Positions 16,201 to 61,931 are shown, numbered from the stretch's first letter. The stretch: 64,000 bases of DNA from an uncultured Chloroflexia bacterium (GCA_963749455.1 CAVVMX010000021.1:393354-457353); one strand, 5' to 3'. A program made the numbers and translations. Notes: generated from the sequence alone by a model not told the origin.

Positions 16201-17943
16201 ATGACCAACCGTGACGTAGCAGACCTGCTAAACGGCATCGGCGACATCCTGGAGATCATGGGCGAGAACCGCTTCAAGGTGATCGCCTACCGGCGCGCTG
16301 CCGAAAACATCCTGAGCCTGGGTCGCGACATCCGGGGTTACTGGCAGGCCGGCAAACTGCAGGAGATCCCAGGGGTCGGCCAGGCCATCGCCGACAAGCT
16401 CGACGAGCTGTTCAGCACCGGCCATCTGGCCTATTATGAGCGTTTGCAGGAGCAGGTGCCGTCTGGCGTCGTCTCGCTGCTGGCCATCCCGGAGGTCGGT
16501 CCCAAGACGGCCAAGCTGCTGTGGGAGCAGTTGGGCCTGCAGGGCGTGACCGAGGTCGAAGCGGCCGCCCGTGCCGGCAAGCTGCGCGACCTGCCGGGCC
16601 TGGGGGCCAGGTCCGAGTCCAAGATCCTGGCCGGCATCGAGCTGCTACACCGCCGCAGCGACCGCATTCCTCTGGGCACGGCCTGGCCGGTGGCCAATGA
16701 GCTGGTGGATGGGCTCAGGGCCACCTGCCCTGAGGTCGTGCAGGCAATGGTTGCCGGCAGCCTGCGACGGATGAGATCAACCATCGGCGACATTGACCTG
16801 CTGGCCGCCTCGGATGCGCCGGCGGCGGTCATGCGCGCTTTTGCCGCGCTGCCGCAGGTGGCCGAGGTGATGCTCAGCGGCCCGACCAAGACGACCGTTC
16901 GCCTCCACAATGGCCTGCAGGCCGACCTGCGCGTGCTGGAGCCCCGGCGTTGGGGTGCGGCCCTTCAGTACTTCACCGGCAGCCAGGCCCACAACGTCCG
17001 GATCCGCGAGATCGCCCAGAAGCAGGGCCTCAGCTTGAGCGAGTATGGCTTCAAGCAGCAGGACGGCGGAGAGATCTTGACCCCGGAAGAGTCTGAGGTG
17101 TATGAGAACGCTGGGCCTGCCCTGGATCGCACCCGAGCTGCGCGAGGACCGGGGCGAGATCCAGGCCGCACAGACGGGACGCCTGCCCGATCTGGTGGAC
17201 TGGGAGCAGATCCAGGGCGATCTGCACGCCCACACCAACTGGAGCGACGGCGTCGGCAGCCTGGCCGAGATGGCCGAGCGCGGCGCGGGCGCGGGGCTAC
17301 CGCTACCTGGTCATCTCTGATCACACCCACAGCCTGGGAATCGCCAAAGGACTGACCGCCGAGCGGCTGCAGGCGCAGCGGGTGGAGATCGACGACCTGA
17401 ATGCGACCTGGGACGACTTCAGGCTGCTCCAGGGCTGCGAGCTGGAGATCAAGGCCGACGGCTCGCTCGATTTTCCCGACGAGGTGCTGGCCGGCTCGAT
17501 CTGGTTGTCGCGTCGGTGCATACCTCGCTGCGCCAGGATCCGGCAGCAGATGACGCAGCGGGTGCTGGGCGTCCTGCGCAACCCCTACATCGACGTCGAT
17601 CGGCCACCCGTCTGGGCGCATCCTGGGCCAGCGTGACGAGAGCACCGTGGACCTGGATGCCGTGATCCGCACTGCTGCCGAGACCGGAACGGCCCTGGAG
17701 GTCAACAGCCACCCCTCCCGGCTCGACCTGGACGACGTGCACATCCGGCAGGCTGTCGAACAGGGTGTCCCGATCGCGATCAACAGCGATGCCCACCATC
17801 CCGACGGGCTCGACGTCCTGTTTTTCGGCCTGGCGACGGCCCGGCGCGGCTGGGCCAGGGCCACTGACGTGCTCAACTGCATGACACTGGATGAACTGCA
17901 AGCCTGGCGACAGGCTCGAATCAAGAGACGATCAAGAAACTAA
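16201..17943 (+). CDS. polX: DNA polymerase/3'-5' exonuclease PolX (Pol-beta-like core + PHP domain); at least 3 frameshifts
   Basis: N-terminal lyase/HhH domains ([34 protein letters not shown]..., IPGVG, EVGPKTA). Palm ([18 protein letters not shown]). PHP domain ([11 protein letters not shown], ...[11 protein letters not shown]) in shifted frames. Confidence 0.75.
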
Positions 17944-18565: not shown

Positions 18566-19643
18566 ATGGACATTTACGAGCAACTGAGGGCCAAGCTGGC
18601 CGTCCATCCGATGGGCGCGCCGCCTCGAGAGTCGTTCCTGGAGATCCTGCGCATCCTTTTTACGCCTGAGGAGGCCGCCGTAGCCCTGCACTTGCCGTTC
18701 AAGCCAGGCCGTGACACCGAGATAGCCCAGAAGGCGGGCTTGCCGCTGGAGGAGCTGATAGCCCATTGTGAAGCGATGGCCGACAAGGGGCTGGTCTATG
18801 CCTACGAGTCCAAGGGCCGTCACTTTTACATGCTCTTTCCCACGGCGCCGGGCCTGTTCGAGTTCCCGCTGATGAAGCATGGCCGCCTGGACCTGCCTTT
18901 CGAGCGGCTGAGCGAGCTGTGGCACGACTACTACCAGGACGGCTGGGGTGCAGAGATGACCGGCAGTGCGACCCACATGGCCCGGGTCATCCCTGTCCAG
19001 GAAACGGTCGACGCCCAGCAGACGGTGCTGGTCTACGAGCAGGTGGTCGGCTACATCGACAAGGCCAAGTACATCTCGGTCCAGGACTGCCCCTGCCGCG
19101 TGTCCAAGCACTCCTGCGACGCGCCGATCGACGTGTGCCTGGCCCTGGACTATGGCGCCAAGTTCCTGGCCGAGCGGGGGATGGGCCGGCTCATCGGCCG
19201 CGACGAGGCGCTGTCCGTGCTGGAGCGGGCGCGCCAGGCCGGCCTGGTGCACATGACCTCCAACACGCTGGACAAGGTCGAGTTCATCTGCAACTGCTGT
19301 CCGTGCTGCTGCGGGCTGCTGGGCACCGTCACCCGGCTGGGAGCGGCCTCGGCCAAGATCGCCTCGAACTTTTACGCCATGGTCAGCGCCGACGACTGCC
19401 TGGCCTGCGGCCTGTGCGAGGACGCCTGCCCGGTGGAGGCCATCGCCGTGGAGGACGTGGCGGTGGTCGACCGGGAGCGATGCATCGGCTGCGGCGTGTG
19501 CGTCACCCGCTGTGAGAGCGGAGCACTGGCCCTGGTTCGCCGGGAGACGACCCACGAGCCGCCGAAAGACTATGCGACCTGGCTCGTCCAGGTGGCGCTT
19601 GGAGAAGGACCGTCTGGAGGCGCTCGCGGCGCAGATGCAATAG
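18566..19643 (+). CDS. iron-sulfur protein: unknown N-terminal domain + Cys-rich CCxCCC segment + 2x[4Fe-4S] ferredoxin domain; C-terminal frameshift
   Basis: AAGGAGA RBS. CPCRVSKHSCD, FICNCCPCCCGLLG, then two CxxCxxCxxxCP ferredoxin motifs (CLACGLCEDACP, CIGCGVCVTRCE). Plausible C-terminus ...LEKDRLEALAAQMQ* in a shifted frame, with stop TAG overlapping GTG 19643 of the permease. Confidence 0.5.
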
Positions 19644-21489
19644 TGCTGAACAAAACCCGCAACCTTCTAATCGGCCCTCCGCTCCCCACCCAGCAGCTCG
19701 CCGAGAAGCGGTTGAACAAGGTACGGGCTCTGGCGGCATTCTCGCCCGACGCCCTGTCGTCGATCGCCTACGCCAACCAGGAGATCTACCTGGGGCTTGG
19801 TGGTCGCCGGCGCCGCCGGCCTGTCCATGTCGCTTGCCGATTGGAGCTGGCGATCATCGGTGCTGCTGGTCGATCGTCGCTCTGTCCTACTTTCAGACGA
19901 TCCACGGCTATCCTTCAGGCGGCGGCTCCTACGTCGTGGCCCGCGAGAACCTGGGCACGCTGCCGGGCTTGATCGCCGCCGCGGCGCTGTTGATCGACTA
20001 TCTGCTGACGGCCGCCGTCAGCCTGACGGCGGGAGTGGCGGCGATTGCCTCGGCCTTTCCAGCGCTGTGGCCCCATCGCGTCGCCCTGGCGCTCGTCCTC
20101 CTGGCGATCATCACCATGGTCAATCTGCGGGGGCTGCGAGAGACAGGCACCCTGATGTCCATTCCGGTCTACCTGTTCCTGTTCACCTACCTGCCCATGC
20201 TGGTCTACGGCCTGGTGCGCGTTGTGATCGACGGCCCGGGATCCATGGCCGCTGCTGCACCGGCTGCCCGACACACCCTCTGACGGCGTTTCTGGTGCTG
20301 CAGGCTTTTTCCACTGGCTGTACGGCATTGACCGGGATCGAGGCGATCAGCAACGGCGTGCCGGCCTTTCAGCCGCCCGAGGCCAGGAATGCCGGGCGGA
20401 CGCTGATGGTCATGGCCGTGCTGATGGGTGTGCTGTTCGTGGGCAGCATCGGCCTGACGCAGGTCCTGGCCGTGGTCGCCGGGCCGCAGGAGACGATCCT
20501 GTCGGCGCTGGCGCGGCGGCTGCTGGGCAGTGGGCCGGCCTACGTGCTGATCCAGGCCAGCACGATGCTGATCCTGGCCGTAGCGGCCAACACCAGCTTT
20601 GCCGGCTTTCCGCGCCTGGCAGCTCTCCTGGCCGCCGACGGCTTTTTGCCGCGCCAGTTGACCGGTCTGGGGGATCGGCTGGTGTTTACCAACGGCATCT
20701 TGCTCCTGTCGGTTGCTACTGGCGGACTGATCGTCGTCTTTGGCGGCGATACCCACTCGCTGATCCCCCTGTTCGCCGTCGGGGTATTCCTGGCTTTTAC
20801 CCTGTCGCAGGCCGGCATGGTCATCCACTGGCGGCGTGACGGGGGAAAGGGATGGGAGCTGAAAGCATGCTATCAACGGCGTCGGAGCAGTGGCAACGGC
20901 GGCAACCTTGCTGGTCGTCGGCATCAGCAAGTTCGTCGAGGGAGCCTGGATCACCGTTTTGCTGATCCCGGCCTTGGTGCTTGGGTTCCTGCGGATCCGA
21001 GCCCATTACCGGACGGTGTCCGAGCAACTGTCGCTGCGCGGGCTGCCCCCATCGCTCAAGCCGTTCCCACCCATGCGGGTGGTCGTCCCCATCTCCGGGG
21101 TGCACCGGGGGATGATGGACGCCGTGGCCTACGCCTGTTCGATCTCCAAGGACGTGACGGCGGCGTACGTGGAGCTGGAGCCGGGCGCGGGGGAGCGCGT
21201 CCGCAAAGAGTGGGAATGCTGGTGGCCCGACGTGTCGCTGGTGGTCCTGCCCTCGCCTTACCGCTCCGTTGTCAGACCGTTGCTCGACTTTTTGGACCAG
21301 ACTGACCGGGAGCACAACGACGGCCAGCTTGCGGCGGTGGTGCTGCCCGAGTTCGTGCCGGCCAGGTGGTGGCAGAACATCTTTCACAACCAGACCGCTC
21401 AGCTGCTCAAGAGCGCGCTGCTCTATCGCCGCCGGCAGTTTGGTTTTCAGCGCGTGATCATCGACGTTCCATATCATCTCAAGCAGTAG
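19643..21489 (+). CDS. APC-superfamily amino-acid/polyamine-type permease with cytoplasmic C-terminal domain; several frameshifts
   Basis: N-terminus LLIGPPLPTQQLAEKRLNKVRALAAFSPDALSSIAYANQEIY typical of this permease family. 12 TM segments spread over ORFs 18566..19972 (tail), 19834..20283, 19797..21305 and 20890..21489. Confidence 0.55.
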
Positions 21490-21493
21490 TGAG

Positions 21494-21527
21494 AAAAAAA
21501 GCCCTCTCGATGTGAGAGGGCTTTTTG
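21494..21527. terminator. bidirectional rho-independent terminator
   Basis: AAAAAAA-GCCCTCTC-gatgt-GAGAGGGC-TTTTTG between convergent genes. Confidence 0.5.
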
Positions 21528-21543
21528 TTTGTGCGAAGAAGCG

Positions 21544-23011
21544 CTAGGGCGCGTACCGGAACGGATGCCGGGCCGCTTCCTTCTCTGCTATCAGCTCCTG
21601 GAGCGTGGGCCGTCCCTCCAGCGCCTTGCGGATCGCAGCCCGCATCGCCTTGTAGTTGTTGATCTTGACCCGCTGGCGGATGCTGGCCGCCGGGTGGACA
21701 AAGACGTTGGCGATGAGGCAGACGTCGTCCAGGATCGCCTCCGGCAGGTTGTGGTGGGCGATGGCATGCTCCAGGGCCAGCTTGACACCGCTGGCCGCCT
21801 CCTCGTAGACCAACTGCCGGGCCTTGGCCCCGCGCACGGTCACGGTGGGAACCAGCAGGGTTAGCGGCCGGTCGCTGAGGATCGGCCAGCTCATGGCCGG
21901 GGCGCGGCTCGTTCCGGGCCCGCGCGATGGCCTTGCCGACCGGACCGTCCTTCTTGCCCAGCAGCAGGTCGATGTGGGCGATCTCGGAAAAGGGCGGGCC
22001 GGCAAACCCCTCGCCCACACACAGGGTCAGGTCCTCGAAATGGGGCGGCACGTCGGCCGGCAGGGCATACTCGACCTCTTTGCCACCCAGGACCACGGTC
22101 TGGGTGCCGATCTTGCCCAGGTTCTCCAGCTGGGTGCGCAGGTCCTCATAGTCCTCGCGCTCGAACTCGCCGCCCTGGATCATCGGCAGGCGGACGTTGC
22201 TCATCTGCGGCAGTCCGATCATCCGCAGCCCTTCCTTCACCGCCTGAGGACTGCCTTTGCGCGTCACGATCCGGGCCAGGATCTGGATCTCCTTGTGGCG
22301 CTGCCGGACAAACTCGACGTCGCCGCGCTGGGCGGCCTGGTAGATCTCCTGCCAGATGTCGGGGATCAGGTTGGCCGAGGCCAGGATCGCACCGTCGGCG
22401 CCGGCCAGCAGCGCCGGGCCGGCGATCTCGTCGTGCCCGACGAACAGGCCGATCGTGCCGCGCAGCTTTTCCAGCGCGGCCATGAAGAAGGGCATATCGC
22501 CCGACGAGTCCTTCATGCCGATCACATGGTCGAAGGCCAGTCCCATCCCCTCGGCCGTCCACCACTGAAAGTGGGTGCCGGCGCACTGGGGGATGTTGTA
22601 CAGCACCATCGGCAGCTCGACCTTGTCCACCTCTTTGTAATGGTCGAACACCTCGTTGAAGGCAGGCTTTGAGATAGTAGGGCGCTACCACCAGGGCGCC
22701 GGTCACGCCGGCGTCCTTGGCCCAGCTGGTCAGCTCGACCGTCTCGCGCGTGCTCTGGCAGCCGGTGCCGGCCAGCACCGGTACCCGGCCGCCGACCTCG
22801 TCCAGGCAGACCTCGATGGTCCGCTTCTTTTCGTCGAGCGTCATGGAGCTGAACTCGCCGGTCGTGCCGCACGGCACAACGCCGTTCGACGTGGGGCAGC
22901 ACAAAGCGGATCAGCGCCCGGTAGGCTGCCTCGTCCAGCCGGTCGTCGGGGGTAAACGGCGTGACCAACGCCGGGAAGATGCCTTTGAACCAGTCTAGTT
23001 TTCTTGCTCAT
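21544..23011 (-). CDS. fusion protein: DapA/DHDPS-family class I aldolase-like domain + C-terminal formaldehyde-activating enzyme (Fae)-like domain; copy 1, about 3 frameshifts
   Basis: ATG 23011 (MSKK) five nt after the stop of copy 2. A poly-A indel at ~22990-23000 restores ...KLDWFKGIFPALVTPFTPDDRLDEAAYRALIRF (DapA N-terminus). GVVPCGTTGEF and lysine-bearing KDSSG motif. C-terminal VGEGFAGPPFSEIAHIDLLLGKKDGPVGKA ... NNYKAMRAAIRKAL ... EAARHPFRYAP* aligns with Fae (AHIDLIIG, YNYEATKLSIQRAV, THPF). DapA C-terminus and Fae N-terminus are in one frame (ORF 21479..22651), so the fusion is genuine. Confidence 0.6.
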
Positions 23012-23016
23012 GGGTT

Positions 23017-24442
23017 CTACGCTCCAAATGCGGCGTCGATCGCCGCGCAGGTCGCCGCGTAGGCGTTGTGGTGCAGCAGCCGGCGGTCGAGCGCCTGGGG
23101 ATGGACCGCTGCCTGGACCAGGATCACGTCGGTGTGCATGGCTGTTTCAGGGATGACCTCGGCGGCCAGCTTGTCGACGATGGCCTTGGCGACAGCGTTC
23201 TGCACCGGGCCGTAGATCATGTTCGCCTGCCGCAGGTCCTTCAGCTCGTTCGTCGGCACGATCAGCGTGCTGGGCCGGACGGTCAGATTCGGCTCCAGGA
23301 TCGCGCTCAGCGCCTCGTAGCCGTGACGGGGGTAGGTGAGCTGGTAGGCCCATGCCTCGCCCAGCGGCCCATCCTTGGCACCGCACAGCAGGTCGATCTG
23401 GATCGCCTCGACCGCTTCGCCGGCAGCGCCGGTGCCGATCCGCATGCCGTGGGACTGGATCGTGTTGGCGGTCACGCCCACCGCCTCAAATCGTCCGACC
23501 AGCGGTCCACCTGGCACATGGTGCTCGGCGCTTGGGGCTGGGATCTTGCCCAACCGCTCCAGCTCTAGCTGGATTTCGGCCCGGTCCTCGTGCATCAGTG
23601 CCCCGCCGACGCTCTTGAGCGGGCTGCGCGGCTGGCCGGCATCGACGCCCATCATCTTGAGCGCCTGCTTGACGGCCACCCCGCCGCCGTAGCGGCAAAA
23701 GATGCGCGACAGCTTTTGCACCTTGCGCTGCAGCGCGCGGGCCGTCTCCAGGTCGCCGCGCCGCACGGCTTGCAGGATCGCCTGCCACACCTCTGGGTAG
23801 ACCTGGGCCGAGGCCAGGATCATGCCGCTGGCGCCGCCGGCCAGGGCGTTGAGCACCACCTCGTCGTGGCCGATCAGGACGTTGATCCGGTCGCCGGCAT
23901 ATTCCAGGATCTCCATGGTGTAGGTCAGGTTGCCGGACGAGTCCTTGAGGCCGACGATGTTGGGAATGTCGGCCAGGTCCTCGACGACGCGGCGGGGCAG
24001 GTAGGCATCGACCACCTGGGGGATGTTGTACAGGATGATCGGCAGGTCGGGCAGGGCTTTGGCGATCTCGTAGAAGTGCTGGTAGATCCCCTTGTCGGAC
24101 GGATGAAGGAAGATAGGGAGTGACGACCAGGCAGGCGGTTGCACCGGCTTCCTGGGCGGCGCGGCTGAGGTCGATGGCCAGCTTGGTGCCGGCTGCGCCG
24201 GTGCCGGCGATGACCGGCTTGCCGTGGGCTTCTTCGACGGCGATCTGCACCAGCCGCTTGCTTTCCTCGGGGGTGAGATAGTTGAACTCGCCGGTGGTGC
24301 CGCACGGCACCAGGCCGTCGACATGGTCGATGACGTGCCGGATCAGGCGGCGGAAGGCCGCCTCGTCCACCGATTCGTCTTTGGCAAAGGGCGTGACCAG
24401 GGCGGGGTTGACCCCACCCGGTCGGAACGGTTTGTCAGTCAT
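23017..24442 (-). CDS. fusion protein: DapA/DHDPS-family aldolase-like domain + C-terminal Fae-like domain; copy 2, one frameshift
   Basis: GGAGAG RBS. MTDKPFRPGGVNPALVTPFAKDESVDEAAFRRLIRHV..., GLVPCGTTGEF, GLKDSSGNLTY. The 435-aa ORF 23017..24324 carries the DapA C-terminal half and a complete Fae-like domain (EAVEAIQIDLLCGAKDGPLGEA...) in one frame. Confidence 0.65.
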
Positions 24443-24457
24443 GGGTTTTCTCTCCGT

Positions 24458-25727
24458 CTATCTGTGCAGGTTCCACGCAGCGATGACCGACAGGCCGGCC
24501 TCGGTCAGCGCCCGGGCAGTGCGGTTCACGGCGTTGTGCTTGTCCAGGTAGTTCCGCTCCATGGCCGGCATCAGCCCCTTGGCCAGGATCTCCTGCTTTG
24601 GCACAAAATAGTCGAGGATGTCAGAGGGATGCTCCAGCCCCTCCTCCACGTCCGGGTTGCCGCCCTCATGCTTGGCCGAGATGTTGGGCACCGTGGCGGC
24701 CAGTTCCACCAGCTCCTGGGTGCGGTCATAGGGCTGGCGGACGATGCTCTTGTACGCCTCGGTGATGTGGTGCTCAAAGCGGACTACCTCCTCCAACCCT
24801 AGAGCGCGGCGCAGGTCGGAGGCGATCTGGATCGTCTCGTTGTTGACCGAGTTGCTCCAGTTGAAACCGATGAGCGACGTGGTGCCGTCGTCTCGGGCAA
24901 AGAGCCGGGCGCCGATCAGGGTCCACAGCGCGGCGTAGGGGTTGTCGTTCCCCACAAAGACCGAGATCTTGAACTCGACGTCCACCCCCAGCTTGTGCAG
25001 GAAATAGGCAAGCAGGATCGTGCCGTTGTTGATGTTGAGCACCTGCTTGATGCCGTAGGTGGTGTAGTAGCCCAGGAACTCATCGAGCCACTTCAGTGCG
25101 TAGTGGTTGGGCTGGCCGATGCCGCCAAAATAGCCGGTGATCGTCGCCGGTCCGCCCAGGTGGACGTTCGAGCCGTCGGTGCCCTTGGTGTCAAGCGTCT
25201 CGACATAACTTGCTCCGACGATCTGCATGGCCGCGGCAACGGCCAGGGTATCACCCTGATCGGCCACCTGCTCCTTCATGTTGCGGACGCGGATGTAGCG
25301 CCCGGGCATCAGCTCGCCGTTGGCGATCGCCTGTCTGGCTTCGGCAATCAGCCAGGGGAAGAACGACAGGGAGCTGATCTCCAGGGTGACTGCCCGGCTG
25401 TCGTCAAAGACAATTGTATCAGACCGGCTGCCCAGCTACCTTGCGCCGGTAATCCGCCATGGGGATAAAGGCGCCCCTGTCCCGCTGATCCTCCAGCCAG
25501 GCTAGATCGGCCAGATAGGGCGAGCTGATCGCTTGCAGGCGCTGTTTGAGGTTTGGGAGGGAACGCGCCTCAGCGGCTTTCCGGTTTATCTCCTCGATCG
25601 TGCCATACTTGTCGACTACCGCCAGAAAATCGTTGATGGCCCGGTTGTTCGGGTCGAGCAGGAAGGCATTGACCTCGTCGAGCCGGCTGCTGGCGATCCT
25701 CAATCTGTTCCGCAGATCGGTGTCCAT
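24458..25727 (-). CDS. conserved hypothetical protein, first gene of the DapA-Fae operon; probably one ~420-aa gene split by a frameshift near 25419-25438
   Basis: ORF 25419..25727 (MDTDLRNRLRIASSRLDEV..., GAGGAGG RBS) ends inside a region that is open and protein-like in the frame of the 283-aa ORF 24458..25309 (...VFDDSRAVTLEISSLSFFPWLIAEARQAIANGELMPGRY...). No ATG, GTG or TTG start nor RBS precedes the 283-aa ORF. No family recognised. Stop is 15 nt upstream of DapA-Fae copy 2. Confidence 0.35.
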
Positions 25728-25866
25728 CAGTTCATCCTCCTCGCTGAGCGTGGATTACGTTGGCTGCCTGATTATAGCACACAAATTGCAGCTTGTCACT
25801 TCGTAGACGAAAGGAGGGCAGGACGCAACACAAGACCCGACAGGTTCTCGCAAACCCGTCGGGTCT

Positions 25867-25942
25867 TATACCCTCAGGTACCCTCGGCGCGATTCGGACG
25901 CGCGGCCTTCTCCTCCGCAGGGAGACGCTCTAATCCACTGAG
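25867..25942 (-). tRNA. tRNA-Arg (anticodon GCG as read; T-loop TCCGAAT)
   Basis: Hand-folded cloverleaf on the minus strand. Acceptor GCCCTCG/CGAGGGT (G1-U72), D arm GCTC..GAGC, anticodon arm TCTCC-CTGCGGA-GGAGA, T arm GCGCG-TCCGAAT-CGCGC, discriminator A + CC. Confidence 0.65.
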
Positions 25943-25947
25943 CTACG

Positions 25948-26040
25948 AGGGCTCAAAGGCGGGGAGGCAGGGATTTGAACCCTGGGAGGAGCTTTATGGC
26001 CCCTCAACCACTTAGCAGGCGGCCCCGATCGACCACTCCG
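25948..26040 (-). tRNA. tRNA-Ser (anticodon GCT), long variable arm
   Basis: GGGGAGG acceptor, 3-bp D stem, anticodon loop CTGCTAA, 21-nt variable arm, T arm CAGGG-TTCAAAT-CCCTG, discriminator G + CC. 5 nt from tRNA-Arg. Confidence 0.85.
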
Positions 26041-26057
26041 GCACCTCCCCAAGATAT

Positions 26058-26147
<90 letters not shown>

Positions 26148-26283
26148 ACATCCCTCCGCGAGCGGTGCCCCGGACTCCCTCCCCGGCGCATGGACAGTAT
26201 ATCAGAGAGCCCAGTTTCTGTCAAAACGGGTCTCTGGGCAAACCGAGAGGGTCCCCGGGGCCGGAAGTTGGCCGCGACCGCGG

Positions 26284-27550
<1,267 letters not shown>

Positions 27551-55849: not shown

Positions 55850-56018
55850 AAGGCGGCTGAAACCCATGCGGCGAAGGCATGTTGCACAACTGTCCGTCTC
55901 GTGGTAAGCTACAGGCGTCAATGTCTACCCGCTCTCGCCGGACCGTGCTGAGCGAGCGCATGAACATGTCCTTGACACAGCAGCGTTGCAGTTGGCAGCC
56001 TGGATGGAGGTGAAAGGT

Positions 56019-56947
56019 ATGCTGGCAAGATCCGGTCTATTCCCATTTGATTACATTCGCCCGACTACACCCGACGAGGTGGTGCGCCTGTTGCAGAATG
56101 ATGGGGACGGCGCACGGCTGTTGATGGGCGGCACCGACCTGTTGGTGCGCATGCGCGATGGGGTCATCGCCCCCCGGGTCGTGGTGGACGTCAAGCATCT
56201 GCCCGGCATGGGTGAGGTAACCTACGACGACGGGACCGGCCTGACGGTGGGTGCGGCGGTGACGATGAACCGGCTCGCCGGCCATCCGGCGGTCCAGGCC
56301 CACTATCCGCTGCTGGCCGAGTCGGCGAATTCGGTCGCGTCCTACCAGGTGCGCAACCGGGCGACGCTGGGCGGCAACCTGTGCAACGCTTCTCCGGCGG
56401 CCGACACCGCGCCGGCTGTGCTGCTGTTTGAGGCGTTCATCGTCCTGTATGGCCCGCATGGCGAGCGCCAGGTGCCGGCAGCGGCCTTTTTCCTGGGCCC
56501 CGGCCGGACGGCGATGCAGGCCGGCGAGTTCATGACCGCCATCCGCTTTCCCCCACCGCCGAGCGGCGCGGCTGGCCGCTATCTGAAACTGGGACGGAAC
56601 CGGGCCGGCGACCTGGCGATTGTCGGCGTCGCTGTACTGGGCTTTCCCGACCATGCCGTCCCGTCAGGCTATCGCTTTCGCATTGGATTGGCGTCGGTAG
56701 CGCCGGTGCCGCTGCGGGTCGAGGAGGCTGAGGCGCTGCTGGCGACAGCCCACCGGGCGAGGAAACCTTTGCTGCCGCTGCCGCCACGGCTGCCGCTGCG
56801 GCCAGCCCTATCGACGACGTTCGGGCCAGCGCTGCCTACCGCCGGGCGATGGTCCGCAACCTTACCCTGCGCGCCCTGCGCGATGTGTGGGCCCGCCTGG
56901 CTGAGCAGCTGACCGCTTTAAGCGAACAAAGGAGAAGCAATGTCTGA
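56019..56947 (+). CDS. molybdenum hydroxylase (XDH/CODH family) FAD-binding medium subunit, CoxM-like; one frameshift
   Basis: FAD-binding LLMGGTDLL, ATLGGNLCNASPAAD. Confidence 0.7.
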
Positions 56948-57423
56948 GCACTCGATCACAATTAGTTGTGAATGGCGAACAGGAGCGCCTGACCGTGCCG
57001 GCGAACATGACGCTGCTGGAGCTGCTGCGCGAGAGGCTGGCGCTGACCGGCACCAAGAACGGCTGCTCGGCCGGGGAGTGCGGGGCCTGCACGGTGCTTG
57101 ATGAACGGCGAGCCGGTCAACGCCTGCATGGTGCTGGCCGTGGAGGCCGATGGGGCCGAGGTCGTCACCGTCGAAGGGCTGGTCGCACGATGGGCAACTG
57201 GATGCCGTCCAGCAGGCGTTCATGGACGAGGGGGCCGTCCAGTGCGGGTTCTGCACGCCGGGCATGTTGATCTCGGCGCGGGCGCTGCTGACCGCGTACC
57301 CCGCACCCGACCGAGGAGCAGATCCGCGAGGCGCTGGTGGGCAACCTGTGTCGCTGCACCGGCTATACCCGCATCGTGCAGGCGATTCAGAAGGCGTCGC
57401 GCAGCAGCGGACGTGACCGGTGA
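56940..57423 (+). CDS. molybdenum hydroxylase [2Fe-2S] small subunit, CoxS-like; about 2 frameshifts
   Basis: Plant-type ferredoxin motif [11 protein letters not shown] and second cluster motif QCGFCTPGM...NLCRCTGY. Confidence 0.7.
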
Positions 57424-57439
57424 GAGGCAGGAGTGGAAG

Positions 57440-59794
57440 ATGAGCGACGAGAAGCAGACCTTCAATCCTGTCGGCCAGAGTGTCCCGCGCGTGGATGCGC
57501 TGGACAAGGTGACCGGCGCGGCGCAGTTCACCGACGACCTGCAGTTCGGACCGGGGCTGCTGTACGGCCGGGTCGTGCGCAGCCCTCATCCCCACGCGCT
57601 GATCAAGCGGGTGGATGCCAGCCAGGCGCTGGCCGTGCCCGGCGTCAAGGCGGTCGTCACCGGGGCCGACACGCCCGGCTTCATCGGCCTGTACCTGAAG
57701 GACCGGCACATCTTTTGCACCGACCGGGTGCGCTACGTGGGCGATCCGGTGGCCGGGGTGGTCGCGACCAGCGAGGAGATCGCCGAGGAGGCGGCCCGGC
57801 TGGTCGAGGTCGAGTACGAGGAGCTGCCGGCCGTGTTCGACCCGCTGGAGGCGATCAAGCCCGAGGCGCCCCTCCTGCATCCTGACCTGGGGTCCTACGA
57901 AGTCGTGCCCTTTATCTTTCCCAAGGCGGGCACCAACGTCTCCAACATCTTCCGGGTGCGCAAGGGCGACGTGGACGCGGCCTGGGCGCAGTGCGACGCC
58001 ATCGTCGAAGGAACCTACCGCGTGCCGCACATCCAGCACGTGCCGATCGAGCCGCACGTGGCCGTCGCCCGCTGGGAACGCTCTGGCGAGGTGACGCTGT
58101 GGAGCAGCACCCAGTCGCCCTTTGCCCAGCGCGACCTGATCGCCCAGACGCTGGGCATCTCCCAGGGCGACATGCGCGTCATCGGCTCCTACATCGGCGG
58201 CGGCTTTGGCTCCAAGGCGGGCGTGTCGATGGAGGCGCTGGCCGTGGCCATGGCGCAGAAGGTGCCGGGCCGGCCGGTCAAGCTGCGCATGACGCGCGAG
58301 GAAGAGTTCTTCTGCACCTTTGTCCGGCAGGGACTGGTCGCCAAGGTCAAGATCGGCGGCACGCAGCGAGGGCAAGATCCTGGCCCTCCAGGTCGAATAC
58401 TATTGGGACGCCGGGGCCTATACCGAGTATGGCGTGAACATCACCCGCGCGGCGGGCTATTCTTCCACCGGCCCGTACAACGTGCCCAACGTCAAGACCG
58501 ACTCCTACTGCCTCTACACCAACCATCCGGTCGGCGGGCCGATGCGCGGCTTTGGCATGCCCGAGATCCACTGGAGCATCGAGCAGTCGGTGGACCGCCT
58601 GGCCGAAAAGCTGGGCCTGGATCCGGTGCGAGTTCCGCCTCAAGAACTGCGTCAAGGGCGGCGACACGATCGTCACCGGCATGATCATGCACCCGATCGG
58701 CCTGTCAGAGTGCATCGAGCAAGGTGGCGCAAGGCGATCGAGTGGGGCAGCAGGAGAACGCCCGTCGGCCCCGCACAAACGGCGGGGCAAGGGCATCGCC
58801 ATCTGCTGGAAGGCGCCGGCCATGCCGCCCAACGCCGGCTCCGAGGCCTGGGTGCGCTTCAACGAGGACGCGACGGTCAGCGTGGCCGTCAGCGGCCAGG
58901 AGCTGGGCCAGGGCACCTTTACCGTGGCGGCGCAGATGGCGGCCGAGACGCTGGGTGTGCCGTACGAGTGGGTGCGCATCTCCCGTCCGGTGGACACCCG
59001 CTACAGCCCCTACGAGTGGCAGACGGTCGCCAGCCGCCTCACCTGGTCGATGGGCAACGCCGTGCGAGGCCGCCGCCGGCGACGCCCGGCAGCAGATCGT
59101 GGAGATGGTGGCGCGCTACTGGGACGAGGACGCCGGCCGACCTCGACATCCGCAACGGCGAGGTCTTTTCCTATCGCAGCGAGCGGTCCTTCTCCCTGAA
59201 AAAGCATGGTGATCTACGGCCTGCCGCTGCCCGACGACAAGGGTTGGACCGGCGGCCCGATCATCGGCCGCGGCAAGTTCATGCCGACCTACGTCACCGG
59301 CCTGGATCCAGAGACCGGCCAGGGCGAGCGGGCGGTGGTCCACTATACCACCGGGGCGCAGGCGGTCGAGCTGGAGGTGGACACCGAGACGGGGCAGATC
59401 GAGATCGTGCGCCTGGCGGCGGCTTACGACGTGGGCAAGGCGATCAACCCCGACCAGGTGCGCGCCCAGATGGAGGGCGGCGTGGTGCAGGGCGCCAGCT
59501 CGGCCCTGTTCGAGGAGCTGAAGCTGCGCAACGGCAAGCCGGCTGAACCCCTCATTCGTGGACTATCGCATCGCGACGGCCGTGGACGCGCCGCGCAAGA
59601 TCATCGCCGAGTATGTCGAGGTGCCGCAGGATGATGGCCCGTGGGGGGCGCGTGGGATCGGCGAGCACCCGATGATCGCCACCGCGCCGGCCATCGCCAA
59701 CGCGCTCTACGACGCGCTGGGCATCCGCTTCAATGACCTGCCGCTGACGGCCGAGAGGGTGTTCCTCGCCTGGCAGGAGCAACAACCACAGTAG
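57440..59794 (+). CDS. molybdenum hydroxylase molybdopterin-binding large subunit, CoxL/XdhA-like; at least 4 frameshifts
   Basis: AGGAG RBS. MSDEKQTFNPVGQSVPRVDALDKVTG... Mo-cofactor blocks (GGGFGSK, GMPEIHWSIEQ, C-terminal GARGIGEHPMIATAPAIANAL). No AYRCSFR (form I CODH) motif seen. Confidence 0.75.
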
Positions 59795-59801
59795 AGTCAC
59801 A

Positions 59802-59834
59802 GGGCGGGATGTGCAATTCATCCCGCCCTTTTTT
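59802..59834 (+). terminator. rho-independent terminator
   Basis: GGGCGGGAT-gtgcaattc-ATCCCGCCC followed by TTTTTT. Confidence 0.6.
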
Positions 59835-59875
59835 GTTGCGCCGGGATACCCGGCTCCAACTCGGAGGACAATTCT

Positions 59876-60960
59876 ATGCCCGAGTTCATCCCCGCTCGCG
59901 AGCTGGCTCGCTTGTACTACGTCGAAGCGGTCAGGCCCATCCTTGAGGCCGACTATCCCGATTTGGCGCACTCGGCCGGGCTGATCGGTCCTGGCTCGGA
60001 GGTGCTTGGCTTTGACACCGAGATGTCCACCGATCACGGTTGGGGGCCGGGGGTTGGGATCTATCTGACCGAGGCCGATCACGCCCGGCTGGCCGGCGAG
60101 CTGCGCACAACGCTGGGCTACAAGCTGCCTCTGCTCTTTCGCGGCTGGCCGACGCACTTTGAGGAGGTGCCGGATGATCCCGGGACGGAGGTGCCCACGT
60201 TAACCGAGACCCGCCCCCTCAACCACCATGTGCGGGTCACCACGCTGCACCGATTCGTCCGAGAATACGCCGGCGTCGATCTGGATCGGGAGCTGACGGT
60301 GCTGGACTGGCTGGCCATTCCCGAGCAGAACCTGAGGACGCTGGCCGGCGGGGCCGTGTATCACGACGGGCTGAACGTCCTTGAGCCGATGCGCCGCAGT
60401 CTGGCCTACTATCCGCACGACGTGTGGCTATACCTGTTGTCGGCGCAGTGGCAGCGGATTGGGCAGGAGGAGCCGTTTGTCGGCCGGGCCGGCACAGTCG
60501 GCGACGACCTCGGCTCAGCGAGTCATTGCCGCGCGGCTGGTGCGCGACCTGATGCGCCTGTGCCTGTTGATGGAAAGGCAGTACGCGCCCTATCCCAAGT
60601 GGTTTGGCTCGGCATTTGCCCGGCTCGAATGCGCCGCTACCCTGATCCCCATTCTCCAGAACGTGCTGCGGGCGACCGATTGGCACGAGCGAGAGAAGCA
60701 TCTGTCTGTTGCCTACGAGACCGTCGCCATCATCCACAACGATCTGGGCATCACCGCGCCGGTGCTCGCCCAAGTCTCGCGCTTCTGGAGCCGGCCGTTC
60801 TGGGTGATCCAGGGGGAGAGGATCGCCCGCGTGATCTGGGAGGCGATCCAGGACCCGGAGGTCAAGCGGCTGCCCTTTGGGGTCGGCAAGGTCGACCAGT
60901 ATGTCGATAGCACCGACATCCTGTCTTACGCCGGGCGGTGCCGGCGACTGGGTGGGCTCT
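59876..60960 (+). CDS. hypothetical protein (possibly DUF4037-like); one frameshift near 60500, C-terminus uncertain
   Basis: MPEFIPARELARLYYVEAVRPILEADYPDLAHSAGLIGPGSEVLGFDTEMSTDHGWGP... continuing in ORF 60381..61151. Confidence 0.3.
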
Positions 60961-61057
60961 ATACGAAGAGGATGCTGAGATGGGCAGGCTGCAGCTCCGC
61001 GGGCGACTGTGGAAGAGGCATATCGATTGTTCGCGCATGGGTCCCGGGCGCAGGAGA

Positions 61058-61931
61058 TCACCCGGCGGCCAGCCACAGGAATCCGGCCAGCACGTCTGCG
61101 CCGGACGTGGCGCCGTGGGCCACGACCTGCTGGACGGCCGGCGCAAGCTGAGCGCACGCCACCGGCGCTGAGGGCAGCCAGCAGTCGGTGCCAGTTTGCA
61201 TCACACTGTCCACGGGCGGCAGCGCGCAGAAAGGCGGCTGACAGCGTCGTCGTGCGGGGGCCGGCCACCTCGGCCAAGGTGCGGCAGAACGGCCCAGGGG
61301 CAGGGTGGGCAAGCCAGGCCCACAACATCAGCCCGCCCAAAAAGTCGTCGCCGGATGGGGTGAGGCCGATCCCACGGCCGGCCAGCTGAGCGGCTGCCTC
61401 CCGGAGGCAGGCAAGGTCTCCCTCCCATCCTAGCCTCAGATTCTTCGCTTCGCTACCTGGCCTGACAGCCAGGGCCGGCTGGACAACATGCGCATCGGCC
61501 GTGTCCAGGGCAGTAAGTAGGCTGCCGGCGGGGGCATGGCCCTGGGCGATGGCCCTCAGCTCTGGCAGACCTGTCATGATGATCGGCAGCCGTGCCCGGT
61601 GTGCGCTCCAGTTGGGGCAGGGCTCCCACACGGGCGCTTCTCCCAGGGCAACCTCTAGACTGCCGACGTGCAGCGTGTCTCCATCCAACCGGGCCGGCGT
61701 GCCGGGCAACGCCCCGTGAGCTGCCGCCAGCTCACCCGGCTCAGCCTGGACCACAACGCTGAGTGGGCCATCGCCGACGCTGGGGGACACCAGGGCCACC
61801 ACATCGCCCTCTGGCGTCGCCAGGTCGCACGCCTGGTCAAAGACTGCCAGGACGTGGGCAGAAAACCACTGGCGTTGTAGGGTTGTCCTTGCCGTCCGGC
61901 TGATTGAGCGGGCAATCAGGCGCATGGTCAT
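61058..61931 (-). CDS. DUF2877-family protein; one frameshift near 61300
   Basis: GIGLTPSGDDFLGGLM and C-terminal VVAHGATSGADVLAGFLW (in ORF 61058..61312) are signature blocks of DUF2877. Confidence 0.4.

Follow-up and report, generated by a model that had tools for sequence, protein, structure and literature searches.

Fae condenses formaldehyde with a reduced pterin, and in the enzyme of Methylorubrum extorquens the cofactor cleft lies between neighbouring subunits. To our knowledge, the archaeal Fae-Hps protein is the only known fusion of Fae to another enzyme; its family model, NF009833, is named for 5,6,7,8-tetrahydromethanopterin hydro-lyase/3-hexulose-6-phosphate synthase, and the protein joins Fae to a formaldehyde-handling aldolase. 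A second point of reference is PanB, in which the enolate of 2-oxoisovalerate takes up the C1 unit carried by 5,10-methylene-tetrahydrofolate, so that ketopantoate, a 4-hydroxy-2-oxo acid, is formed. Here, we describe two tandem genes from an uncultured Chloroflexia bacterium (GCA_963749455.1 CAVVMX010000021.1:393354-457353; this 64,000-nt stretch, with a G+C content of 64%, is referred to as the window), each of which joins a class I aldolase domain of the dihydrodipicolinate synthase (DHDPS)/NAL family to a Fae-type domain. Their products are best classed as a putative formaldehyde aldolase fused to Fae.

Open reading frame (ORF) and three-frame reading place three co-directional genes, A, B, and C, on the minus strand between positions 21544 and 25727. 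The first gene, A (24458-25727), encodes an orphan protein of 422 aa in which a helical N-terminal domain precedes a TIM barrel; the two DHDPS-Fae fusions, B (23017-24442; 474 aa) and C (21544-23011; 487 aa), come next. The gap between A and B is 15 nt, and 5 nt separate the stop codon of B from the start of C. A promoter-like site on the same strand (25771-25799; GTGACA, 17-nt spacer, TATAAT, with TG ahead) lies 44 nt 5’ of the start of A, and a bidirectional terminator-like hairpin with T-runs (21502-21520) lies 24 nt past the C stop; both are consensus matches only. Three tRNA genes are found at 25877-26157. Because the gaps are short, the block is bracketed by promoter-like and terminator-like sites, and the same arrangement is kept across other loci, we treat A-B-C as a unit and conclude that it is a single operon of an Anaerolineae (Chloroflexota) bacterium. 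The original prediction, made from the sequence of the window, had described this layout correctly: tandem DHDPS-Fae genes spaced by 5 nt, an upstream gene of about 420 aa without an assigned family, and a position between a terminator and a tRNA cluster.

The domain assignments of that prediction are likewise supported by Pfam scores of both proteins. B matches PF00701 at 4.5e-74 (249.2 bits; cut-off 22.1) and PF08714 at 2.4e-34 (119.1 bits; cut-off 27), and C matches the same two families at 1.2e-68 (231.4 bits) and 1.9e-31 (109.7 bits), respectively. Within the Pfam limits, the aldolase domain of B covers residues 9-278 (23608-24418) and its Fae-type domain residues 335-472 (23026-23439). 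The corresponding domains of C span residues 8-287 (22148-22989, approximate owing to insertions in the nucleotide sequence) and 331-483 (21559-22018). In both proteins, the domains are joined by a linker of about 45 residues, and the predicted signature motifs are present (VTPF, VPCGTTGEF, KDSSG, (A/I)(H/Q)IDLL, and ARHPF). B and C are 39% identical to one another and are diverged paralogues.

An AlphaFold2 (AF2) model of a C orthologue (P0392) features two packed domains, with a predicted local distance difference test score (pLDDT) of 84.6 and a predicted template-modelling score (pTM) of 0.82. The N-terminal half, in which a helical bundle follows a (beta/alpha)8 barrel, can be superposed on DHDPS structures at template-modelling (TM) scores of about 0.92 (range, 0.85-0.93) normalised to the target, and DHDPS structures are the closest solved structures to the fusion proteins. 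No chain in the Protein Data Bank (PDB) spanned both halves of the model, with TM scores normalised to the query of 0.57 or less, and neither PDB sequence searches nor comparison of the model recovered a solved structure with both DHDPS and Fae domains.

In the window, A, B, and C are each split over more than one reading frame, and the full proteins are obtained only after removal of single-base insertions. A tblastn comparison with intact orthologues placed the single insertion of A between 25431 and 25492, that of B at 24110-24117, and the four of C at about 22996, 22885-22904, 22668-22681, and 21884-21900. After correction, A is 98% identical over its full length to an intact orthologue (P0121), B is 96% identical over 100% coverage to another (P0001), and C is 96-97% identical over its full length to two more (P0391 and P0392). 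Like breaks occur elsewhere in the window relative to intact orthologues on L001, a collinear comparison contig with 89% identity: one in serS (26287-27550), three in polX (16201-17937), four in an amino-acid permease gene (19643-21486), and one in an RNaseT-WYL gene. Breaks number approximately one per kb of coding sequence over the 17 genes that were compared, which lie at about 12.7-30.9 kb of the window, so an ORF-based reading of the window needs frame correction. The pattern points to an unpolished long-read-type assembly.

Six frame breaks inside 4.2 kb might be taken to indicate that the fusion genes are decaying pseudogenes or the product of an assembly chimera, and thus non-functional here. 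However, each of the six is an insertion of one base when compared with intact orthologues; the essential genes serS and polX are broken likewise and at similar density; the protein sequence on either side of each break is 96-98% identical to that of intact orthologues; and gene order is the same in independent assemblies. We find decay or chimerism scarcely credible. Since serS, polX, and the permease gene share the pattern and the orthologues are intact elsewhere, the breaks in A-B-C are evidently, as judged from these sequence comparisons, assembly indel errors. The junction between DHDPS and Fae lies within an uninterrupted ORF in each copy (23017-24324 for B and 21479-22651 for C), as originally proposed. 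Of the earlier estimate of two proteins of about 480 aa, the sizes stand (474 and 487 aa once corrected) but the single ORFs do not, given one insertion in B and four in C. At one other locus, on a 1.15-Mb contig (L085, 12827-14301), C was called as two genes, a DHDPS of 385 aa and a Fae of 104 aa; this is probably an assembly frameshift rather than a natural split.

The two-domain architecture extends well beyond the window. Searches with B and C each returned more than 5,000 significant matches, the best 120 of which were retained, and these sets contain at least 240 intact two-domain orthologues with at least 80% identity (at least 120 for each gene) from NCBI, JGI, ENA, and Logan assemblies. 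Organism names among the listed orthologues are only those of Anaerolineae or Chloroflexota metagenome-assembled genomes (MAGs). The A-B-C block is kept in L001, L005, L006, L009, L085, L086, L087, and L089, and B-C is kept at a contig end in L088. All protein names are automatic: “4-hydroxy-tetrahydrodipicolinate synthase,” “formaldehyde-activating enzyme,” or “dihydrodipicolinate synthase family protein.” The searchable literature yielded no relevant description of a DHDPS-Fae fusion or of Fae in Chloroflexi/Anaerolineae. The architecture is thus common in Anaerolineae metagenomes and functionally undescribed in the literature searched. The original prediction, which was aware of no described architecture of this kind, agrees with both the literature searched and the solved structures, and the objection it had allowed for, that the fusion might prove common and annotated with a defined function, applies in its first half only: the proteins are common, and their names are automatic.

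To compare catalytic residues, we counted positions over 120 B and 120 C orthologues, with numbering for the aldolase domain from Escherichia coli DapA and for the Fae domain from M. extorquens Fae. The catalytic machinery of class I aldolases is retained: all 240 orthologues have Thr44, Thr45, Tyr133, and Lys161, the residue that forms the Schiff base, without exception. The determinant of DapA specificity is not. Arg138, which in true DHDPS binds aspartate semialdehyde, is replaced by Val in all 120 B orthologues and by Cys (103) or Thr (17) in the 120 C orthologues. At the position of Tyr107, the member of the DapA catalytic triad that is supplied across the tight dimer, Phe is found in 119/120 B and 98/120 C orthologues; the adjacent Tyr106 is mostly kept, so a register shift is possible. 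We rejected the idea that B and C complement one another at Tyr107 across a heterodimer, as most C orthologues also carry Phe. Identity to E. coli DapA is 29-35%, and against the dapA equivalog model TIGR00674 (cut-off 206.15 bits), B scores 223.3 bits, narrowly above, and C 197.8 bits, below.

These scores bear directly on whether B, and perhaps C, is simply an ordinary DapA in which the Fae-like domain is only an oligomerisation or regulatory module. The score of B above the dapA cut-off agrees with that idea, as do the nearest solved structures, which are all DHDPS, and the DapA names in databases. An accessory role for the domain also has a parallel in the PDB series 8UB7 (“Avd”), which bears the same Fae sequence at residues 126-265 of a 290-residue chain; Fae is a stable pentamer. 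Nevertheless, Arg138 is replaced throughout, C falls short of the dapA cut-off, two diverged paralogues are retained in tandem, the Fae catalytic-site residues His22 and Asp24 are kept in every C orthologue, and no linkage to other dap genes was seen at any of the loci examined. We therefore consider an ordinary DapA very improbable. Given the replacement of Arg138 in all orthologues and the sub-threshold score of C, B and C appear to be class I aldolases of 2-oxo acids in which the aldehyde pocket is altered, and they are not filed here as DapA. The name “4-hydroxy-tetrahydrodipicolinate synthase” is probably wrong for both because Arg138 is absent.

The Fae domains of B and C are more divergent. 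They are 29-32% identical to M. extorquens Fae, and that of B matches the M. extorquens structure 1Y5Y by phmmer at 2.8e-18. Against TIGR03126 (cut-off 118.05 bits), the scores of 118.6 (B) and 116.9 (C) are both borderline. Asp24, His121, and much of the Fae core are conserved, and the His22-x-Asp24 motif (AHID) is reportedly part of the catalytic site, according to the paper of 2005 on the structure of Fae. C has both His22 and Asp24 in 120/120 orthologues and keeps the C-terminal RHPF tail, whereas the five residues of its loop at 58-62, together with residue 51, are deleted and Gly85-Pro86-x-Gln88 is lost. In B, the loop at 58-62 and Gly85-Pro86-x-Gln88 are kept and Asp24 is present in 119/120 orthologues, whereas position 22 is Gln in 117/120 and the last approximately 20 residues, including the HPF tail, are absent. 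Because each pattern of loss is fixed across its own orthologues, both copies are under purifying selection, for different roles. Such reciprocal losses would fit a mixed B/C assembly.

Divergence of this kind could also mean that the Fae domains have been recruited for another aldehyde (e.g., acetaldehyde or glyoxylate) or for a non-pterin amine or thiol carrier, which would place the aldol reaction outside of C1 metabolism. The low identity to M. extorquens Fae, the TIGR03126 scores at the cut-off, the missing His22 in B, and the missing loop and GPxQ motif in C are all in keeping with recruitment, as is the fact that we know of no tetrahydromethanopterin (H4MPT) synthesis in Anaerolineae. 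Against it stand the conserved Asp24, His121, and core, and a link between the operon partner, gene A, and PanB (below) that points to C1-pterin chemistry. On balance, recruitment outside of C1 metabolism seems to us rather doubtful.

Gene A adds a contextual clue. It has no Pfam or NCBIfam match, a profile search of the PDB returned noise only, and phmmer against 1.8 billion representative proteins recovered only its own family and fragments thereof. Its AF2 model (pLDDT 70.7), a helical N-domain followed by a TIM barrel, has only generic TIM-barrel neighbours. The family itself is strongly conserved (65-98% identity) across at least 585 species-level genomes and many phyla, including Anaerolineae, Bipolaricaulota, Desulfobacterota, Myxococcota, Spirochaetota, Planctomycetota, and others. 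We examined the context of gene A in the best 80 genome loci (L005-L084), of which 73 had enough flanking sequence to judge. In 54 of these 73, panB directly adjoins gene A, and gene A-adjacent panB products score 319.6 and 296.6 bits against TIGR00222 (cut-off 207.55). In three of the 73, all Anaerolineae, gene A is followed by B and C and has no adjacent panB. No panB was found in the 64-kb window, in approximately 21 kb each of L001, L085, and L086, or in 11-15 kb each around L005, L006, and L009.

The pairing of gene A with panB does not reflect a classical pan operon; queries with E. coli sequences of panC, panD, and panE detected none of the three near gene A in the 80 loci, and that explanation was set aside. 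The searchable literature on novel ketopantoate reductases or panB context offered nothing useful. Gene A may function in pantoate or C1 metabolism. Because it is encoded beside PanB in most lineages and beside B and C here, the simplest interpretation is that the metabolite supplied or consumed for gene A by B/C would be of the same type as that of PanB.

Building on the domain identities, the conserved catalytic residues, the loss of Arg138, the conservation of the operon, and the association of PanB with gene A, we propose, tentatively and at a little under an even chance, that B and C couple class I aldol chemistry with pterin-bound formaldehyde in a hydroxymethyl-transfer function. The two proteins would act together, probably as a hetero-oligomer. 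The Fae domains would interconvert methylene-pterin with enzyme-held formaldehyde plus free pterin; the pterin would most likely be tetrahydrofolate in this organism, with H4MPT as a possibility. The aldolase domain would then either form a 4-hydroxy-2-oxo acid, by joining formaldehyde to the enamine of a Lys-bound 2-oxo acid (pyruvate or 2-oxoisovalerate), or catalyse the reverse reaction, and the product or substrate would be handled by the TIM-barrel protein A. A PanB-like net reaction is proposed since a formaldehyde-using class I aldolase combined with Fae would give the same reaction in two steps, and Fae-Hps offers a precedent for such a combination.

Several observations weigh against this proposal, in addition to the score of B above the dapA cut-off. 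Gene A lies beside neither panB nor B/C in 16 of the 73 informative loci, and a neighbour-joining tree of gene A splits the B/C-linked loci between two positions instead of uniting them in one clade. The survey for panB was limited to locus DNA, and B/C may act at a step other than that of PanB. Class I aldolases of the DHDPS type normally use pyruvate and only rarely 3,3-disubstituted donors, of which 2-oxoisovalerate is one. Finally, the Fae of M. extorquens works specifically with H4MPT; the 64-kb window showed no H4MPT genes, and we know of none in Anaerolineae. A narrower version of the hydroxymethyl-transfer proposal holds that B/C are a non-homologous replacement for PanB that makes ketopantoate or a close acid, with gene A as an unrecognised enzyme of the same pathway, e.g., a ketopantoate reductase of a new type. 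We view this version as an unlikely one.

The genes that surround the operon introduce a further alternative. A-B-C loci have at least four different sets of neighbours, including serS with tRNA genes, a 2-oxoacid dehydrogenase complex, a Beta_elim_lyase gene, a NUDIX gene with HflX, and an amino-acid permease with a ferredoxin-like gene. The permease gene adjoins C in the window, L001, and L089, and aminotransferase and acetate kinase genes are found within a few kb in L086-L088. At one locus only (L087, 7465-8520), the Beta_elim_lyase gene, which encodes an aldehyde-handling enzyme of the threonine-aldolase type (PF01212), lies immediately upstream of A. Such neighbours in amino-acid metabolism would suit a catabolic formaldehyde trap, in which, as the original prediction had suggested, the aldolase cleaves a 4-hydroxy-2-oxo acid (e.g., 4-hydroxy-2-oxobutanoate) to pyruvate and formaldehyde and the fused Fae immediately captures the toxic formaldehyde on a pterin. 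The same domain and residue evidence applies to this scheme as to hydroxymethyl transfer, and it has a precedent in Fae-Hps, which captures formaldehyde likewise in archaea with the reverse ribulose monophosphate pathway. The chemistry differs from that of our proposal only in direction and substrate. Yet the catabolic flanking genes are not conserved between loci, and the link of gene A to the biosynthetic PanB across many phyla leans toward biosynthesis. A catabolic trap is thus a realistic possibility to which we assign a minority share. The gene A-PanB association favours hydroxymethyl transfer, possibly biosynthetic, at least as much as it would the release of formaldehyde from 4-hydroxy-2-oxobutanoate.

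Other features of the flanks vary between loci. Four A-B-C loci that are more distant (L085, 15042-15533; L086, 14229-14681; L087, 12955-13452; and L088, 3785-4231) carry a NUDIX hydrolase gene 3’ of C and in the same orientation; the window does not have it at this position. NUDIX enzymes have roles in folate and CoA metabolism, among others, and this neighbour may also point to the function. In close relatives, namely L001 (9524-10004) and also L002-L005, a pair of small genes that overlap (86 and 75 aa; no Pfam match) is inserted between A and B. They are absent from the window, and because A and B are separated there by the 15-nt gap alone (24443-24457), the pair looks like a small mobile cassette that is not part of the operon.

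The remainder of the window encodes additional enzymes of possible metabolic interest. An MttB system, which the original prediction had raised as another C1 source, is present as an MttB-family methyltransferase fragment (PF06253; 2223-3155) and a B12-binding corrinoid protein (1294-2073), located approximately 18 kb from the operon; no link between the two was found. Genes for a xanthine-dehydrogenase-type molybdenum enzyme (PF01315 and PF02738; frame-broken) beside an AllH-like gene (oxamate carbamoyltransferase subunit) at 55986-61931 suggest a purine/allantoin degradation cluster. A “tRNA-???” call with a four-base anticodon (ARAGORN; 59985-60073) is probably false, as it does not align with true tRNA-Ser and falls within an ORF that matches DUF4037.

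If the proposed function holds, the fusion would represent a second natural way to add a pterin-borne C1 unit to a 2-oxo acid without free formaldehyde. The solution is built from two well-known folds, and their combination was found in no paper of the literature searched. Aldolases that fix formaldehyde are in demand for synthetic C1 assimilation as well. The consequences for annotation are more immediate. Anaerolineae are abundant in anaerobic digesters and sediments, and the DapA or Fae names on hundreds of metagenomic proteins, which get read as lysine biosynthesis or as methylotrophy/H4MPT metabolism, likely mislead metabolic reconstructions of these bacteria. Gene A, in turn, represents a strongly conserved orphan enzyme family whose tight panB link makes its function directly testable. 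If B/C were to replace PanB, the locus would add two new enzyme families to a textbook vitamin pathway.

Finally, the fusions can be placed relative to the four described systems that they most resemble. With DapA/DHDPS and the related NanA, YagE, and HOGA1, they share the (beta/alpha)8 fold, Lys161, Tyr133, and Thr44/Thr45. They differ from DapA in the absence of Arg138 (240/240), the predominance of Phe at position 107, a C-terminal extension of approximately 190 residues that comprises the linker and Fae, and a genomic setting in which no other lysine-biosynthesis genes were found. With M. extorquens Fae (1Y5Y/1Y60), they share the fold family, Asp24 in both B and C, and His22 in C. That enzyme is free-standing, whereas the domain is fused in B and C at about 30% identity to it; each paralogue lacks different conserved Fae features, and the host of B and C is not known for H4MPT.

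The archaeal Fae-Hps protein is the nearest architectural parallel, as it also combines in one polypeptide a Fae and an aldolase that has formaldehyde as its aldehyde partner, with formaldehyde presumably handed between the pterin and a carbon-carbon bond-forming site. B and C nonetheless score only 104.5 and 76.8 bits against NF009833 (cut-off 274), and the matches are confined to positions 2-161 of 392, i.e., the Fae half. Fae-Hps features an Hps of the OMP-decarboxylase fold rather than a DHDPS/NAL class I Schiff-base aldolase; its domain order is reversed relative to B and C, in which the aldolase is N-terminal; and B and C are two diverged tandem paralogues in a bacterial (Anaerolineae) host. 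PanB (TIGR00222) is the parallel in proposed chemistry and in genomic position: the net reaction would likewise convert a methylene-pterin C1 unit and a 2-oxo acid to a 4-hydroxy-2-oxo acid, and in 54 of 73 informative genomes the equivalent place next to gene A is taken by panB. PanB has no sequence or fold relationship to B and C, neither of which matches PanB in NCBIfam, and the equivalence is drawn from gene context only. PanB, a member of the PEP mutase/isocitrate lyase superfamily, has one domain and depends on a metal (class II-type), whereas in B and C the chemistry would be divided between two domains and would proceed through a Schiff base on lysine. In summary, we propose that B and C may represent a two-domain functional analogue of both PanB and the archaeal Fae-Hps.

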